Positions 20,154 through 24,414 of a stretch of DNA of 64,000 bases are shown one piece after another. The stretch covers positions 32,001 to 96,000 of the forward strand of contig CAXXHA010000010.1 in the NCBI GenBank assembly GCA_963662265.2. Direction: 5' to 3'. How positions within the stretch are numbered: the first letter of the stretch is position 1; each line of letters opens with the position of its first letter. The position numbers and the translations under genes are program-made. The DNA is from Spirochaetia bacterium. GTDB lineage: Bacteria; Spirochaetota; Spirochaetia; CADAEX01. The notes under the pieces were generated by a model that made no database searches, was not told the origin of the DNA, and saw nothing but the letters and a program-made list of their open reading frames with translations.

Positions 20154-20636
20154 CTACATCCCCATGCTTTCAAGCCATTCCTTTTCATTCTTTTTCATCT
20201 CATCTTCAGTAAGCTTCCACTTATTTGTCGCTATAGCCCAGACATGGCCGAAGGGATCAAGGACTTTCCCCATCCTGTCTCCCCAGAATGCATCCATTAT
20301 TTCATCCACAATTTCAGATCCGTTTTCCACCATTCCATTGTAAACAGCATCACAGTCTTCAACATATATAAACAAGCTCACAGTAGTCCCGTTAATAGCA
20401 CCTTTCTCCACACCTCCCGGATAGGAATCAGCCATCATAAGATTTGTATCCCCAATTCTTATCATTGAATGCATTATCTTATCACTGCCTGGAAAACTGT
20501 AAGGGGGAAAAACAAGTTCCGCCCCCAGCACTTTCCTGTAATATTCAATAGCTTCTGAACAGTTTCCATTAAACCACAGATTAGCTGTTACATTGTTCAT
20601 CCCTTCTGGGACAGGTTTTAATGCTTTTTCAGCCAT
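20154..20636 (-). CDS. VOC/glyoxalase-family protein (PhnB-like)
   Basis: AIEYY..VLGA, IMHS.IRIGD..LMMAD, DAFWGDRMGKVLDPFGHVW. Confidence 0.88.
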   Translation of the reverse strand: MAEKALKPVPEGMNNVTANLWFNGNCSEAIEYYRKVLGAELVFPPYSFPGSDKIMHSMIRIGDTNLMMADSYPGGVEKGAINGTTVSLFIYVEDCDAVYNGMVENGSEIVDEIMDAFWGDRMGKVLDPFGHVWAIATNKWKLTEDEMKKNEKEWLESMGM

Positions 20637-20913
20637 TAAAATTCTCCTTGTATAGAGATCTGTAAGTATGAATAATTAAGCCTTGAATTTTCTGTTTAAA
20701 CACCTGAAACATTTTATACCTTACTTTTATTAATAGTAGTTTCAAAATGATCTGTTTTCAAAAGAAACTCTTACATGAGGCTGTATTTACAATAAATTTT
20801 AATAAAATCAGATATTCTGAAGGCTTTATAAATTAAACAGGACGAAAATTCTTTCTTCAGGACCGGAAGATAATTTCATATTTAAACAAGCAGTGTTTTA
20901 AATATAAAATAAT

Positions 20914-20969
20914 ATCGATATTATTGTATCCAATATTGACATTTTTCTTATTCGATACTATATTATCCA
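20914..20969 (+). promoter_or_regulatory. Array unit 1 promoter with ATCGAT-type operator repeats
   Basis: TTGACA 20936-20941, 17 nt, TATATT 20959-20964; ATCGAT-N8-ATCCAA upstream and TTCGAT-N8-ATCCAT across the -10. Confidence 0.75.
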
Positions 20970-21044
20970 TACAGGTTGGGCAAACAACCTGTAGGTGAAA
21001 ATATTTTGTTTTTGAGAAAATCAAAAATAAAAAAAGAAAATAGA

Positions 21045-21152
21045 ATGTACGAAAGACCTCTGGTAAATGGCAAAATAATATCAGAAATAAGGTCTTTCAA
21101 TAAAAAAACTGCAAATACGTCCGGCAAAACAGTATTTGCAGTTATAATCTAA
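21045..21152 (+). pseudogene. Decayed paralog of the unit-2 47-aa microprotein (MYERPLVNGKIISEIRSFNKKTANTSGKTVFAVII)
   Basis: ERPLVNGK vs ERPFINGK and ANTSGKT vs AEATGKS. Upstream TTGAGAAAATCAAAAATAAAA aligns with TTGAGGAGATCAAAATGAAA of unit 2, with the RBS and ATG altered. Confidence 0.5.
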
Positions 21153-21202
21153 GACTTTTTTATAGATTCCTCCTAACCTTCTAAAAAGAGTTTTATTCAT
21201 GG

Positions 21203-21237
21203 GAACCTGCTGTAAGTTTTACAGCAGGTTCTTTTTT
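21203..21237 (+). terminator. Intrinsic terminator, unit 1
   Basis: GAACCTGCTGTAA-gtt-TTACAGCAGGTTC-TTTTTT. Confidence 0.85.
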
Positions 21238-21309
21238 CATTATTACCTCCTGTAATAATGAGTTGTTATTTATAAAACTGCAGTGAGTTTCACTGCAGTT
21301 TTTCTTTTT
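21238..21309 (+). other. Extra module: hairpin with CTCCT loop followed by a second terminator
   Basis: CATTATTAC-ctcct-GTAATAATG (21238-21260); AAAACTGCAGTGA-gtt-TCACTGCAGTTTT + T-rich tail (21274-21309). Confidence 0.6.
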
Positions 21310-21578
21310 GCTGGCCGTTGCTGCATAAACAGGCTTTTTATACTTATAATTCTGCATTTATTTCACAGACTTATCCGCTGATCACCTGGCAGAAATCTTA
21401 TATTTCCCTATTAACAGCTTTCAAGGACTCTAAAGCTGTTAAACTTATTTCAACAGTGTTTTATCCTCCCGGAATAATTCTAATTATCACGCAGTCTAAA
21501 CACTGTTTTGCCCATATTCCCATATGGAGCCCACCTGTCTACCTATCTAACTACCCAGAACCATGTAGATAAATTTTT

Positions 21579-21635
21579 ATCGATAATTACATATCTTATA
21601 TTGACATTTTTTATTTTCGATAGTATGTTATCGAT
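21579..21635 (+). promoter_or_regulatory. Array unit 2 promoter with ATCGAT-type operator repeats
   Basis: TTGACA 21601-21606, 17 nt, TATGTT 21624-21629; ATCGAT at 21579; TCGATA-gtatgt-TATCGA across the -10. Confidence 0.78.
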
Positions 21636-21676
21636 AGTTAGAGATTGAAATAAATAGTATTTCAAGGAGGACAATT

Positions 21677-21772
21677 ATGTTAGAAATTTTAATTGTAGCT
21701 ATTATAGCAGCTGGTGCAGTTTTTGCATTCATAGAAGACGGTCGTGTTAGTCCTAACGGAATCGACTGGTAA
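21677..21772 (+). CDS. 31-aa single-TM micropeptide MLEILIVAIIAAGAVFAFIEDGRVSPNGIDW
   Basis: AAGGAGG RBS 6 nt upstream; hydrophobic N-terminal helix; clear paralog at 22205-22306 with conserved IAAG...AFIEDG...PN..DW. Confidence 0.75.
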   Translation: MLEILIVAIIAAGAVFAFIEDGRVSPNGIDW

Positions 21773-21803
21773 TCTAGAAAAAACTTGTTTTGAGGAGATC
21801 AAA

Positions 21804-21947
21804 ATGAAAAAAATACTTAGTAAATTATCAGAAAGACCATTTATCAATGGCAAACAGAGACATATTAAAAAAGAAGGCCTTTCAATTAAGGCAGTTGCAG
21901 AAGCAACAGGAAAATCAATTGAATCTGTACTTTCAATGAAATTCTAA
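21804..21947 (+). CDS. 47-aa basic microprotein with an HTH-like C-terminus
   Basis: GAGGAG RBS; GLSIKAVAEATGKSIESV fits the S-x-x-x-[VI]-A-x-x-x-G-x-S-x-x-x-V helix-turn-helix pattern; decayed paralog in unit 1. Confidence 0.6.
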   Translation: MKKILSKLSERPFINGKQRHIKKEGLSIKAVAEATGKSIESVLSMKF

Positions 21948-21991
21948 AACTTCTTTTTAACTTCAAACCTTCTAAATTTTGAGTTTTATTC

Positions 21992-22028
21992 AAAAGACCT
22001 GCTGAGCCGTATACAGCAGGTCTTTTTT
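21992..22028 (+). terminator. Intrinsic terminator, unit 2
   Basis: AAAAGACCTGCTG-agccgtata-CAGCAGGTCTTTTTT; stem core ACCTGCTG/CAGCAGGT shared with the unit 1 terminator. Confidence 0.85.
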
Positions 22029-22105
22029 AATTTTTCAGTGAAAATCATTGATAACCTTTGTTCAGGAAGTAGATAAATAAAAATCATGCATTTTGATAAT
22101 ATATT

Positions 22106-22162
22106 ATCGATAATGCTGTATCCATACTTGACTTTTTCAGTTATCCTTTATACATTATCAAT
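22106..22162 (+). promoter_or_regulatory. Array unit 3 promoter with ATCGAT-type operator repeats
   Basis: TTGACT 22128-22133, 17 nt, TACATT 22151-22156; ATCGAT-N8-ATCCAT upstream, same spacing as units 1 and 2. Confidence 0.72.
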
Positions 22163-22204
22163 AACTTTAAATACGATTTTAATAATCTTGTTAAGGAGGC
22201 CAGC

Positions 22205-22306
22205 ATGTTACTTATCAATACTTTAGTAATCATGGCTATTGCAGCAGGAGTTTTAGCTGCATTCATTGAAGATGGAAAAACAGCACCAAATTGCTGTGAC
22301 TGGTAG
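22205..22306 (+). CDS. 33-aa single-TM micropeptide MLLINTLVIMAIAAGVLAAFIEDGKTAPNCCDW
   Basis: AAGGAGG RBS 5 nt upstream; paralog of 21677-21772 with synonymous codon changes in the shared FIEDG/PN/DW residues. Confidence 0.75.
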   Translation: MLLINTLVIMAIAAGVLAAFIEDGKTAPNCCDW

Positions 22307-22356
22307 AAAGTAGTCTGAAGATTTCAGATACTTGTAAAAACTGAAAACAATCAGTA

Positions 22357-22550
22357 GAAAGGTCTGTAATTTACAACAGGATTAACAATATAGAGAAAGG
22401 AAGACCTTTCACATTACATTCCATGATGCTGCAGCAAAAACAACAGAATCGGCATCCGGAATGTAAAACAAAAGACTTTTTAGATTCCTCCAAAATTCTA
22501 AAAAGAGTTTTATTTCCAGGCCCCGCAGCGTTGCTGAGGGGCCTTTTTTT
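22357..22550 (+). ncRNA. Putative structured RNA / 3' UTR-derived sRNA, array unit 3
   Basis: Stems 22357-22365/22402-22410, 22414-22422/22458-22466 and 22476-22484/22497-22505 with TTCCTCC in the loop; terminator 22518-22550. Confidence 0.6.
22518..22550 (+). terminator. Intrinsic terminator, unit 3
   Basis: AGGCCCC-g-CAGC-gtt-GCTG-a-GGGGCCT + T7. Confidence 0.82.
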
Positions 22551-22685
22551 CCCCCTTTCACGCAAATACCCATTCTCTCGGCAGCTTCATAAGATTTAAT
22601 AATAAAATTCCGCCTCTTGCGATTTATATGCATATCATGCAACTTCAACCATCCAGGTATTTTTACAAAATAATTACAGACTGTA

Positions 22686-22740
22686 TTGACTTTTTCCCTT
22701 TTCGATAGTATTATATCGATAACAAGTTACCGATAACAAG
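22686..22740 (+). promoter_or_regulatory. Array unit 4 promoter (no recognisable ORF follows)
   Basis: TTGACT 22686-22691, 17 nt, TATTAT 22709-22714; TCGATA-gtatta-TATCGA plus direct repeat CGATAACAAG at 22717 and 22731 (14-bp period). Confidence 0.65.
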
Positions 22741-22802
22741 CAATATTTCTGATGGCCAGAAATGTTTGACTTTATAAATACAACTGGAATAAGGCTGGAG
22801 AT

Positions 22803-22834
22803 AAAAAAAATCCCGGATCCGAAGAACCGGGATT
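22803..22834 (-). terminator. Intrinsic terminator of gdhA
   Basis: A-run then ATCCCGG...CCGGGAT stem downstream of the gdhA stop. Confidence 0.8.
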
Positions 22835-22871
22835 TATATAAGCCTAATCAGGCTAAATATAAAACTATATC

Positions 22872-24209
22872 CTAGTAACCGAGATCAAGCATTGCATCTG
22901 CAACTTTCTTGAAACCGGCAATATTAGCACCGTTGATGTAGTTTACAAAACCTGAAGCATCTTTGCCTTCTCTAACACAAGCAGCGTGGATGTCTTTCAT
23001 GATTACTTTGAGTTTTGCATCAACTTCTTCAGATGACCAGTTGTATTTCATTGAGTTCTGGCACATTTCAAGACCTGATACTGCAACACCACCGGCATTA
23101 GCAGCTTTACCAGGACCAAACGGGATCTTGTTTTTAACAAACTCAACTGCAGCATCTGCAGTACAGCCCATGTTGGATGTTTCAACAACATATTTAACAC
23201 CGTTTGAGATAAGAGCTTTTGCATCATCGAGAGTAAGCTCGTTCTGGAAAGCACAGGGGAATGCCATATCAACTTTAAGTTCCCATGGTTTTTTACCTGC
23301 AACAAATTTTGCGCCGAATTTTTCAGCGTAAGGAGCTACAACATCATTGTTGGAAGCTCTGAGCTCAAGCATATAGTCAAATTTTTCTTTTGTATTGATA
23401 CCTGCTTCATCATAGATGTATCCGTCAGGTCCAGAAATTGCCACTACTTTACCACCAAGTTCAGTAGCCTTCATTACAGCACCCCAGGCAACATTACCGA
23501 AACCTGAAACAGCAATTGTTTTGCCTTTCATTGAATCATTGTTTGTTTTGAGCATTTCATCAGCAAAATACATTGTACCAAAACCAGTTGCTTCAGGTCT
23601 TACAAGTGAACCGCCCCAGTTAAGGCCTTTACCTGTGAGTACACCTGTGTTTTCAGCTCTGAGTCTCTTGTACTGACCATACATGAAACCGATTTCTCTT
23701 CCGCCTACTCCGATATCACCTGCAGGAACGTCAGTCTGAGGACCGATATATTTCTGAAGTTCTGTCATGAAACTTCGACAGAATCTCATGATTTCTGCAT
23801 CTGATTTACCTTTAGGATTAAAGTCTGAACCACCTTTACCTCCACCCATTGGGAGAGTAGTAAGACTGTTTTTGAAAATCTGCTCAAATCCGAGGAATTT
23901 AAGAGTTCCGAGAGTAACGCTTGGGTGGAATCTGAGTCCGCCCTTATATGGACCAATAGCGTTGTTAAACTGAACTCTGTAAGCCTTGTTTACCTGTACT
24001 TCACCGTTATCATCTTCCCATTCAACTTTGAACATGAAAGTTCTGTCCGGCTCAGTAATTCTTTCAAGGATTTTTGCATCTACATATGCAGGGTTGTCGT
24101 TAACTACATCAATAATAGATTCAACTACTTCTTTTGCAGCCTGAATAAATTCCGGCTGAGCTGGGTTTTTTCTTTCCAGTTCTGCCATAAATTCGTCAAG
24201 ATTATACAT
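22872..24209 (-). CDS. gdhA: NADP-specific glutamate dehydrogenase
   Basis: GPYKGGLRFHPSV, PMGGGKGGSDF, DVPAGDIGVG, RPEATGFG, KAANAGGVAVSGLEM; AAGGAG RBS before ATG 24209. Confidence 0.96.
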   Translation of the reverse strand: MYNLDEFMAELERKNPAQPEFIQAAKEVVESIIDVVNDNPAYVDAKILERITEPDRTFMFKVEWEDDNGEVQVNKAYRVQFNNAIGPYKGGLRFHPSVTLGTLKFLGFEQIFKNSLTTLPMGGGKGGSDFNPKGKSDAEIMRFCRSFMTELQKYIGPQTDVPAGDIGVGGREIGFMYGQYKRLRAENTGVLTGKGLNWGGSLVRPEATGFGTMYFADEMLKTNNDSMKGKTIAVSGFGNVAWGAVMKATELGGKVVAISGPDGYIYDEAGINTKEKFDYMLELRASNNDVVAPYAEKFGAKFVAGKKPWELKVDMAFPCAFQNELTLDDAKALISNGVKYVVETSNMGCTADAAVEFVKNKIPFGPGKAANAGGVAVSGLEMCQNSMKYNWSSEEVDAKLKVIMKDIHAACVREGKDASGFVNYINGANIAGFKKVADAMLDLGY

Positions 24210-24414
24210 TTCTAACAGCTCCTTAAAACATTTTAATACCACCCCTCAGGGCGGTATTACTTATCTATATATAAAGCCTATTTCTGATATTAATCAAGTA
24301 TTAATATTGGCCTATCTATACATCTATACAAGTTAAATCATGAATATTGTTGATATTTAACATAGTGGTGTATTATTATTAAGAAAACGAACATTCTTTT
24401 TTAAGGAATTTACA

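Follow-up and report, generated by a model that had tools for sequence, protein, structure and literature searches.

The window analysed here is a 64,000-nucleotide stretch of the genome of a Spirochaetia bacterium (G000:C10:32001-96000), taken from a 3.77-Mb assembly with a G+C content of 38.5% and belonging to an organism known from metagenome-assembled genomes only. Within a 2.2-kb gap between a VOC/glyoxalase-family gene and gdhA, positions 20900-22840 of the window hold a tandem array of short, related transcription units that begin with the same promoter. On balance we favor the view, based on sequence comparison, that this is a genus-specific array of paralogous units co-repressed by a Rex-family NADH/NAD+ sensor through the palindrome TCGATA-N6-TATCGA.

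A tandem array of related units beside gdhA

The original prediction, made by a model from the letters of this stretch, was that the gap holds four related units in direct orientation. Four direct copies of a 68-nt promoter block (repeat family D1) were found at 20904, 21569, 22096, and 22654, with 62-76% identity to the reference copy. The promoters named in that prediction, TTGAC[A/T] followed by a 17-nt spacer and a -10 element, lie at exactly the positions it gave (20936, 21601, 22128, and 22686) and agree with the consensus at 11, 10, 9, and 10 of 12 positions, respectively. Promoter-like matches over the whole region number 17 compared with 10.7 +/- 3.2 in shuffled sequences, so that the non-random feature is the repetition of the promoter rather than any single match. 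When a profile of the four 82-nt blocks was searched against the 3.77-Mb genome, the array copies scored E 1e-14 to 6e-12, values that follow by construction because these blocks built the profile; the informative part is the gap to the next matches (E 0.57, 2.1, and 7.8), and no fifth copy of the block was found by this search in the whole genome.

Three of the block copies (units 1-3) are followed by related cargo and intrinsic terminators, and the cargo is modular in the way that had been proposed. Unit 2 carries open reading frames (ORFs) for a 31-residue peptide (sORF1) and a 47-residue protein (sORF2), unit 3 carries a 33-residue sORF1 paralogue, and unit 1, which has no sORF1, retains a remnant of the 47-residue ORF that has lost its start codon and gained a stop. 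Unit 4 (fold z -3.65) is a promoter alone, as predicted, with about 120 nt and one hairpin but no cargo between the promoter and its end at the hairpin that it shares with gdhA. The predicted TTCTAAA..GAGTTTTATT block was recovered in units 1-3: a TTCTAAAAAGAGTTTTATT block is identical at 19/19 positions between unit 1 (21179) and unit 3 (22496), and the version in unit 2 (21961-21994) is diverged. Terminators for these three units were also confirmed, by a terminator scan in unit 1 and solely as conserved stems from RNAalifold in units 2 and 3. For these latter hairpins, RNAalifold was given sets of 5 and of 7 homologous copies, and changes on both sides of the stem were seen at 11 of 26 and 6 of 12 pairs. 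The features of the array are collected in Table 1.

Table 1. Features of the array and its flanks, in window coordinates
Feature	Position	Strand	Evidence or remark
VOC/glyoxalase-family gene	20154-20636	-	left flank of the gap
Unit 1 promoter block	20904-20971	+	repeat, promoter, and operator scans
Unit 1 operators	20915-20932 (TCGATA-N6-TATCCA, abuts -35); 20952-20969 (contains -10)	+	motif scan
Unit 1 -35; -10	20936-20941; 20959-20964	+	promoter scan
Unit 1 RNA, without intact ORF	20971-21302	+	fold z -10.2, RNAalifold
Unit 1 decayed sORF2 remnant	about 21046-21152	+	start lost, stop gained
Unit 1 long-range stem GAAAGACCT/AGGTCTTTC		+	predicted fold
Unit 1 hairpin with CCUCC loop (21169-21173)	about 21152-21193	+	predicted fold
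Unit 1 terminator T1	21201-21233	+	terminator scan
Unit 1 second CCUCC-loop hairpin	21240-21264	+	predicted fold
Unit 1 terminator T2	21274-21302	+	terminator scan
Unit 2 promoter block	21566-21636	+	repeat, promoter, and operator scans
Unit 2 operators	21566-21583; 21617-21634 (perfect TCGATA-N6-TATCGA, spans -10)	+	motif scan
Unit 2 -35; -10	21601-21606; 21624-21629	+	promoter scan
Unit 2 sORF1, 31 residues, Shine-Dalgarno AAGGAGG	21677-21772	+	dN/dS 0.19 versus G001
Unit 2 sORF2, 47 residues, Shine-Dalgarno GAGGAG	21804-21947	+	dN/dS 0.16-0.18
Unit 2 3' block, diverged, without CCUCC	21961-22028	+	repeats D2, D17
Unit 2 terminator hairpin	21997-22028	+	RNAalifold; unflagged by terminator scan
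Unit 3 promoter block	22093-22163	+	repeat, promoter, and operator scans
Unit 3 overlapping operators, upstream of -35	22093-22110; 22107-22124	+	motif scan; -10-spanning operator degenerate
Unit 3 -35; -10	22128-22133; 22151-22156	+	promoter scan
Unit 3 sORF1 paralogue, 33 residues, Shine-Dalgarno AAGGAGG	22205-22306	+	dN/dS 0.11
Unit 3 structured 3' RNA, about 245 nt	22307-22550	+	fold z -6.6
Unit 3 sORF2 remnant without start codon, GAAAGGTCT/AGACCTTTC stem	about 22354-22470	+	DNA-level similarity, fold
Unit 3 hairpin, 12-nt CCUCC loop	CCTCC at 22487-22491	+	predicted fold
Unit 3 terminator and U tract	22519-22543	+	RNAalifold; unflagged by terminator scan
Unit 4	22654-22840	+	promoter, no cargo
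Unit 4 -35; -10	22686-22691; 22709-22714	+	promoter scan
Unit 4 operators	22702-22719 (perfect); 22716-22733	+	motif scan
Shared hairpin, unit 4 end and gdhA terminator (minus strand)	22811-22835		predicted hairpin
gdhA (ELFV dehydrogenase), convergent neighbor	22872-24242	-	gene calls, domain matches, synteny

The array is conserved in relatives and was not found outside the genus. Among 41 related genomes, an sORF2 query gave strong matches in three, all of one genus (G000, which is the genome studied here, G001, and G002), and only noise (E 0.57 and 0.72) beyond it; an sORF1 query returned the same three. A six-sequence sORF1 profile run against 201 genomes of the class, a draw from which G002 is absent, gave strong matches in two of them and two weak matches besides. 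In G001 three units stand in the same order beside gdhA, and in G002 a single unit beside gdhA has sORF2 as its only ORF and no sORF1, so that gdhA is the only flank common to all three species. The contigs of more distant relatives resemble G002, with the promoter block joined straight to the sORF2 ribosome-binding site, and a contig from a second sample covers the whole array with 5 differences. A look through 9 public runs turned up no RNA run, and the 4 runs aligned with the array consisted of contigs only. In the non-coding stretch at 21127-21309, G000 and G001 are 89% identical, compared with 88% for gdhA.

Comparison of G000 with G001 gave ratios of nonsynonymous to synonymous substitution rates (dN/dS) of 0.19 for sORF1 of unit 2, 0.11 for sORF1 of unit 3, and 0.16 for sORF2, and comparison of sORF2 with its G002 counterpart gave 0.18 at a dS of about 1.4. 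The underlying counts are small (5.5-23 nonsynonymous and 9-20 synonymous changes), and all agree in direction; in a relative's contig, 10 of the 17 listed sORF2 differences fall at third codon positions. Judged by these substitution patterns, sORF1 and sORF2 are genuine genes under purifying selection.

The four peptide ORFs of the array have no match at E<=1 in Pfam or NCBIfam. sORF1 comprises a single hydrophobic helix followed by AFIEDG..PN..DW, and an Atlas search with it gave no usable match. sORF2 has an ERPxINGK arm and a predicted three-helix, helix-turn-helix (HTH)-like fold; its AlphaFold2 model (predicted local distance difference test score, pLDDT, 79.5) contains a short helix, a small hairpin, and helices at residues 21-24, 28-35, and 39-44. 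Foldseek aligned the last 25-26 residues to the HTHs of sigma region 4, RcsB, ParB, DdrO, and serine recombinases, all at E>2, with no match at E<=0.001 in the PDB. Members of the seven-member sORF2 family have sub-threshold matches (E 0.013-0.12) to seven HTH-type Pfam families, reached by 4, 3, 2, 2, 2, 1, and 1 of the 7 members, and to one other family, and the Atlas neighbors of sORF2 at 0.87 are small HTH_3/HTH_26 proteins. A sequence search of the PDB with sORF2 returned no HTH; its one match, over 18 residues of DNA ligase 1 (E 0.28), is put down to chance. A suspected likeness to the HTH_7 of resolvase/Hin-type proteins received no support from Pfam. Because it draws on a fold prediction and sub-threshold matches only, the label "HTH-like" is reasonable but unproven. 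Relatives of sORF2 are few: five, of 39-47 residues, among 5.8 billion protein clusters, and three among 1.84 billion protein representatives, where three weak matches in longer repeat proteins were also seen. As guesses, sORF1 might modulate a membrane complex and sORF2 might be a second-tier DNA-binding regulator.

Members of the sORF1 family were also recorded at L015 2691-2792 (G001, 33 residues) and L016 2176-2295 on the minus strand (G002, 39 residues). The sORF1 relatives that lie outside the array in G001 and G002 have a AATAATTGTTAAGGAGG-type leader and no promoter block, and each follows another hydrophobic ORF of about 29 residues and adjoins an ABC-ATPase-like ORF. The sORF1 copy in the array may have come from such a locus.

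The operator motif and its probable link to Rex

In the general pattern, each promoter block carries the 18-bp palindrome TCGATA-N6-TATCGA twice, with one copy ending two bases before the -35 element and the other spanning the -10 element and the predicted start. Palindromes at the -35 and -10 elements are present in the units of all three species as inverted repeats overlapping the core promoter; a dimer bound there would obstruct both the -35/UP region and the -10/start region of these near-consensus sigma-70 promoters. Further half-sites follow at 14-bp steps in the array; because the half-site TATCGATA is self-complementary, it can close one operator and open the next, giving overlapping operators at this spacing.

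The perfect palindrome occurs twice in the 3.77-Mb genome, both times inside units. When one mismatch was allowed, G000 contained 20 sites, 8 of them in the 1.9-kb array, and the controls gave 7 (reversed pattern) and 9, 5, 14, and 4 (spacers of 4, 5, 7, and 8, respectively). Two of the 12 sites outside the array precede a rex paralogue (PF06971+PF02629), one precedes a gene for a zinc-type alcohol dehydrogenase (Zn-ADH) by 30 nt, and one precedes a C_GCAxxG_C_C / NuoE-NuoF-like cluster; apart from those within genes (see below), the others are in intergenic gaps without clear meaning. In both G001 and G002, sites precede the rex orthologues and orthologous Fe-ADH genes, and additional sites precede Fe-only hydrogenase and SemiSWEET genes in G001 and a Pyr_redox_2 (nox-type) gene in G002.

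Beyond the genus, the same box was found by placement upstream of Rex homologues. Of 35 upstream regions of Rex homologues, 11 have a site with at most one mismatch, three from the genus itself and eight from four other families (G055, G111, G088, G180, G170, G133, G089, and G028); the control rate leads to an expectation of about 4e-4 per region, a comparison that is not a formal test because the genomes are related. Arrays of the box at 14-bp steps also occur upstream of Rex homologues in other Spirochaetia families. (The loci with this box upstream of Rex homologues or redox genes are L025, L026, L063, L071-L073, L082, L085, L087, and L029.) Genome-wide counts exceed controls in G170 (22 versus 4) and G028 (9 versus 1), and the G170 genes with a site 27-139 nt upstream include GFO/IDH/MocA, C_GCAxxG_C_C+SDR, and SDR genes.

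The canonical Rex operator (ROP) is given as TTGTGAA-W4-TTCACAA (PMC2883068). The box described here resembles it as an 18-bp inverted repeat over core promoter elements, and it matches that published form at its outer T-(T/C)-G and inner A-(A/T) positions. The site TTGATAAgcttTTATCGAA, present in G111 and G088, has the length, geometry, and outer positions of the canonical operator, with GAT replacing GTG. The genes that follow the box (rex and those for alcohol dehydrogenase, hydrogenase, and NAD(P)H-linked oxidoreductases) likewise resemble a Rex regulon, whereas the GAT core and the self-complementary, overlapping half-sites set the box apart. A literature search on Rex with spirochaetes or Treponema, which reached few subscription journals, found no description of such a box.

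Since this operator is common to rex, alcohol dehydrogenase, hydrogenase, and other redox genes, the single regulator is most likely a Rex-family NADH/NAD+ sensor. The earlier proposal that the units are under one regulator accordingly gains a candidate for that regulator from an operator repeated in the units and shared with these genes. From the shared sites, the units are likely to belong to a single regulon together with rex and the redox genes. We lean, with more caution, toward the further reading that TCGATA-N6-TATCGA is the operator of the main spirochaetal Rex lineage and that the units would be the most operator-laden members of its regulon. gdhA itself was considered as a member and rejected, as no operator was found in its upstream region.

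G000 encodes three Rex paralogues. One is at G000:C1:273842-274462 and another is on C32; the box upstream of a Rex homologue in this genome lies at G000:C1:273749-273825, outside the window. The most distant paralogue (C10:3929-4528) has CTGTGAA-N4-TTCACAG directly upstream, a near-canonical Rex box (CTGTGAAATTTTTCACAG at G000:C10:3884-3901, about 28 kb before the window start), so the genome may run two Rex systems with different operators.

Two other box-bearing loci were observed in this genome. At G000:C17:36343-37150 (L023 343-1150, minus strand), a TTGACA-17-TATATT promoter is followed by three box half-site palindromes and reads into about 700 nt with no ORF longer than 58 residues, between a nox-type gene and the end of an EAL-like gene; this stretch represents a degraded gene or, alternatively, one more long non-coding transcript under the regulator proposed here. 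The second locus, at G000:C35:48118-48149, has two overlapping boxes in a gap where an ABC-transporter ATPase-like ORF and an ODP-GGDEF gene face each other with their 3' ends, and no gene is obvious downstream of the boxes.

Predicted structured RNAs with CCUCC loops

The original prediction described unit 1 as a structured RNA with a decayed ORF and unit 3 as having a structured 3' RNA, and both descriptions agree with the folding results. From its predicted start to its second terminator, unit 1 folds at -115.6 kcal/mol, compared with -61.2 +/- 5.4 kcal/mol for shuffled sequences (z -10.2), and the 3' part of unit 3 has a z of -6.6. The conserved 3' block forms a hairpin in five copies, those of units 1 and 3 in G000 and G001 and that of the G002 unit, and GAUUCCUCC is invariant in its 12-13-nt loop in all five. 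CCUCC falls in predicted loops at 21169, 21246, and 22487, the second of these being the ACCUCCU loop of a hairpin placed between the two terminators of unit 1. As the 16S rRNA of G000 ends in GGAUCACCUCCUUUCU, these loops resemble the anti-Shine-Dalgarno sequence.

Paired changes maintain the stems. Read from the sequences, T1 has a U-A pair in place of C-G, and T2 shows several such changes. A GAAAG..CTTTC stem goes back to the codons that specify ERP and EGLS in sORF2. Its pairing is perfect in the non-coding remnants, one unit having ACC/GGU and another GUC/GAC, and this long-range stem is part of the minimum-energy fold in 4 of 4 non-coding remnants compared with 1 of 3 coding copies. This pattern, in few and related sequences, fits selection on RNA structure after coding loss. 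Judged by fold and conservation, the most likely role of unit 1 and of the 3' part of unit 3 is that of an RNA; that the CCUCC-bearing RNAs act by base-pairing is a tentative proposal, which we consider possible but short of probable.

No described family was recognized, as the original prediction had stated: in addition to the Pfam and NCBIfam results above, an Rfam cmscan of 20600-22900 at E<=10 gave 42 matches, none at the gathering score and none to RsaE, with manA-II the best at 28.3 bits against a threshold of 100. On the minus strand at 21193-21264, the second CCUCC loop reads as a perfect AGGAGG, and 5 nt beyond it an ATG begins a frame of 15 codons that runs through T1; because the G001 codons change along with the stem pairs, this frame looks like a by-product of the hairpins and not a gene.

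A proposed mechanism and its alternatives

In the mechanism that we propose, a Rex-family repressor would sit on the operators at a low NADH/NAD+ ratio and keep the units silent. A rise in the ratio would release it and turn the units on together with rex, alcohol dehydrogenase, hydrogenase, and NADH-reoxidising redox genes, and the units would then yield a membrane peptide and a minimal HTH-like protein, along with RNAs whose loops resemble the anti-Shine-Dalgarno sequence. G002 still has as its sole cargo what would have been the ancestral one, the 47-residue HTH-like protein followed by the GAUUCCUCC-loop hairpin and a terminator. In the lineage of G000 and G001, a gene for the 31-33-residue membrane peptide would then have been placed in front and the unit duplicated, after which two copies would have dropped the 47-residue ORF yet kept and tightened the RNA hairpins. 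By analogy with RoxS/RsaE, the CCUCC loops might pair with the Shine-Dalgarno regions of target mRNAs, so that, under reductive stress, the RNAs would mask ribosome-binding sites in a group of mRNAs.

RoxS/RsaE of Bacillus and Staphylococcus is the closest functional analogue of the array RNAs, which are not members of that family. RoxS is bound and repressed directly by Rex, uses four C-rich regions to pair with its targets, and lowers NADH-producing steps (PMC5419742). The array shares with it the predicted control by a Rex-family protein through an operator at the promoter and start site, and the unpaired C-rich loop motifs, suited to pairing with a G-rich Shine-Dalgarno sequence, that precede an intrinsic terminator. 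It differs in having CCUCC in place of CCCC and no Rfam match to RsaE, in deriving its RNAs from mRNAs for two small proteins (which the unit 2 RNA still is), and in its three to four tandem copies, its non-canonical Rex box, and its location in another phylum.

In dual-function small RNAs (sRNAs) such as SR1/SR1P, SgrS/SgrT, and RNAIII/hld, a small ORF and a base-pairing part share one transcript. Unit 3 and the G002 unit are predicted to combine a small ORF with a structured, potentially pairing 3' part in the same way, but the sibling copies of the array seem to split the roles, unit 2 being mostly coding and unit 1 RNA only. By analogy with these systems, the array would represent known regulatory logic, a Rex-controlled C-rich riboregulator combined with a dual-function RNA, in new sequence families, with a variant operator, and in a new phylum. 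The fullest version of this proposal is that a RoxS-like redox riboregulator evolved independently from a protein-coding operon, with three to four very strong promoters held by a Rex-type sensor at an undescribed operator, the bulk release at NADH build-up of anti-Shine-Dalgarno-like RNAs, which would mask ribosome-binding sites or compete for them, together with two orphan micro-proteins, and sibling copies that capture the passage from mRNA through dual-function RNA to sRNA; taken as a whole, we regard this as a speculative scenario that is more apt to be wrong than right. If true, it would provide the first Rex operator and a draft Rex regulon for the Spirochaetia, a class with little-charted redox regulation, and a second, independent Rex-controlled C-rich riboregulator, which would make sRNA control a recurrent answer to NADH overflow and not a quirk of the Firmicutes. 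It would also provide a natural series from small-protein mRNA to regulatory RNA after duplication, with intact, half-decayed, and fully decayed copies in one locus and three species, in what is a wholly computational case from a single uncultured genus.

Several results weigh against the proposed mechanism. On the side of the regulator, the canonical Rex box (at most 2 mismatches, 40 sites in the genome) occurs nowhere in the array, and the operator core has GAT where the canonical box has GTG. No site with at most one mismatch was found in 24 of the 35 upstream regions of Rex homologues, and the recognition helix, tried as a separator of the two groups, failed: it reads IQVRKD whether or not a homologue has the box, so the protein offers no explanation of the specificity. 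At least 3 of the 12 G000 sites outside the array are within genes, and the sites at G000 C17:37057, taken at first as upstream of the nox-type gene, proved to be downstream of that gene, where they follow a separate minus-strand promoter. Motif counts are at control level in G002 (7 versus 8) and G055 (6 versus 8) and only modestly raised in G001 (14 versus 8), so the case rests on site placement. On the side of the RNAs, CCUCC is missing in G000 and G001 from unit 2, which alone has both ORFs intact. A covariance model of the 3' module (hairpin plus terminator), searched in 31 genomes with the best 133 candidates per genome scored, found only its five training copies, apart from three matches at E about 0.08; the RNA family is accordingly one without independent members. 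In a crude complementarity search for extended loop targets, 7 of 46 occurrences of GGAGGAATC precede an ORF, none of them telling, and the one of 13 occurrences of GGAGGAATCT that does so is uninformative.

The units could instead be plain small-protein operons, with the 3' blocks, hairpins, and decayed copies amounting to terminators and pseudogene debris and CCUCC a coincidence in an AT-rich spacer. The absence of CCUCC from unit 2 and the failure to find a loop target are what this view would expect, as is unit 4, which shows that cargo-less promoter copies are able to persist, and the restriction of the family to one genus and one locus means that conservation may reflect recent duplication. 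It is, however, at odds with 21127-21309 being as conserved as gdhA while the adjoining spacer 21310-21540 has no match, with stems (T1, T2, and GAAAG/CTTTC) kept through changes on both sides between units and species, with the two fold z values given above, and with the invariance of GAUUCCUCC in every loop copy including that of G002, at a distance where the dS of sORF2 is about 1.4. We consider this explanation improbable. A different possibility, to which we assign a still smaller chance, is that the palindromes are operators of sORF2 itself, in an autoregulated, immunity-region-like or mobile-element-derived module in which Rex is uninvolved and the rex and redox genes are targets of the small regulator or share the motif by chance. 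Small phage-type repressors typically have several adjacent operators grouped at a strong promoter, no cargo other than sORF2 occurs in all three species, and its predicted three short helices, sub-threshold Pfam matches, and Atlas neighbors are compatible with DNA binding of this kind. Yet the HTH assignment is weak by the Pfam and Foldseek values, sORF2 has few relatives (5 and 3) in the two protein libraries, and the same operator and its 14-bp arrays stand upstream of Rex homologues in four other families. sORF2 was detected in only 3 of the 41 genomes searched, a set outside which G055, G170, and other box-bearing genomes lie, and G028, which has the sites, has no detectable sORF2, which argues that sORF2 is not their reader.

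The original prediction had also offered a type I toxin-antitoxin-like cluster. On such a reading, the 31- and 33-residue peptides would be membrane toxins and the RNAs of neighboring units their antitoxins. Fst/TxpA-like type I loci do combine hydrophobic peptides of about 30 residues, tandem paralogues, and structured RNAs nearby, all of which the array has. sORF1 resembles type I toxins in its size and its layout of one hydrophobic helix plus a charged tail, and the CCUCC loops of sibling units would be able to pair with its AAGGAGG Shine-Dalgarno sequence. Unlike those loci, the array has no overlapping antisense gene: no conserved antisense promoter was found, minus-strand matches, in a region rich in AT, reach 9-10 of 12 positions, and G001 has not retained the one inside sORF2. 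The sORF1 Shine-Dalgarno sequence is predicted to be unpaired (the 5' untranslated regions fold no better than shuffles, with z of -1.6 and +0.6), sORF1 is predicted to be co-transcribed with sORF2, the G002 unit exists without sORF1, and no comparable RNA partner lies near the sORF1-like genes at other loci of G001 and G002. This makes a toxin-antitoxin cluster very unlikely, the least probable of the readings considered. What stands of the overall earlier reading includes the duplicated units, their common promoter architecture, and the RNA-like character of unit 1 and of the 3' half of unit 3.

It is conceivable that unit 4, which aims at the 3' end of gdhA, has an NADH-induced antisense effect on gdhA in G000; the plus-strand U tract of the hairpin is weak, and neither G001 nor G002 shows such an arrangement. 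Just outside the first block (20824-20842) and just after the last (22770-22788) are the two copies of a 19-nt direct repeat with 84% identity, which may mark the edges of the duplicated segment. Between units 1 and 2, no match to the spacer at 21310-21540 was detected in either G001 or G002, whereas its two flanks do match; the spacer between these units also contains an 84-codon ORF (21318-21572), which is probably spurious, and a further CCTCC at 21465.

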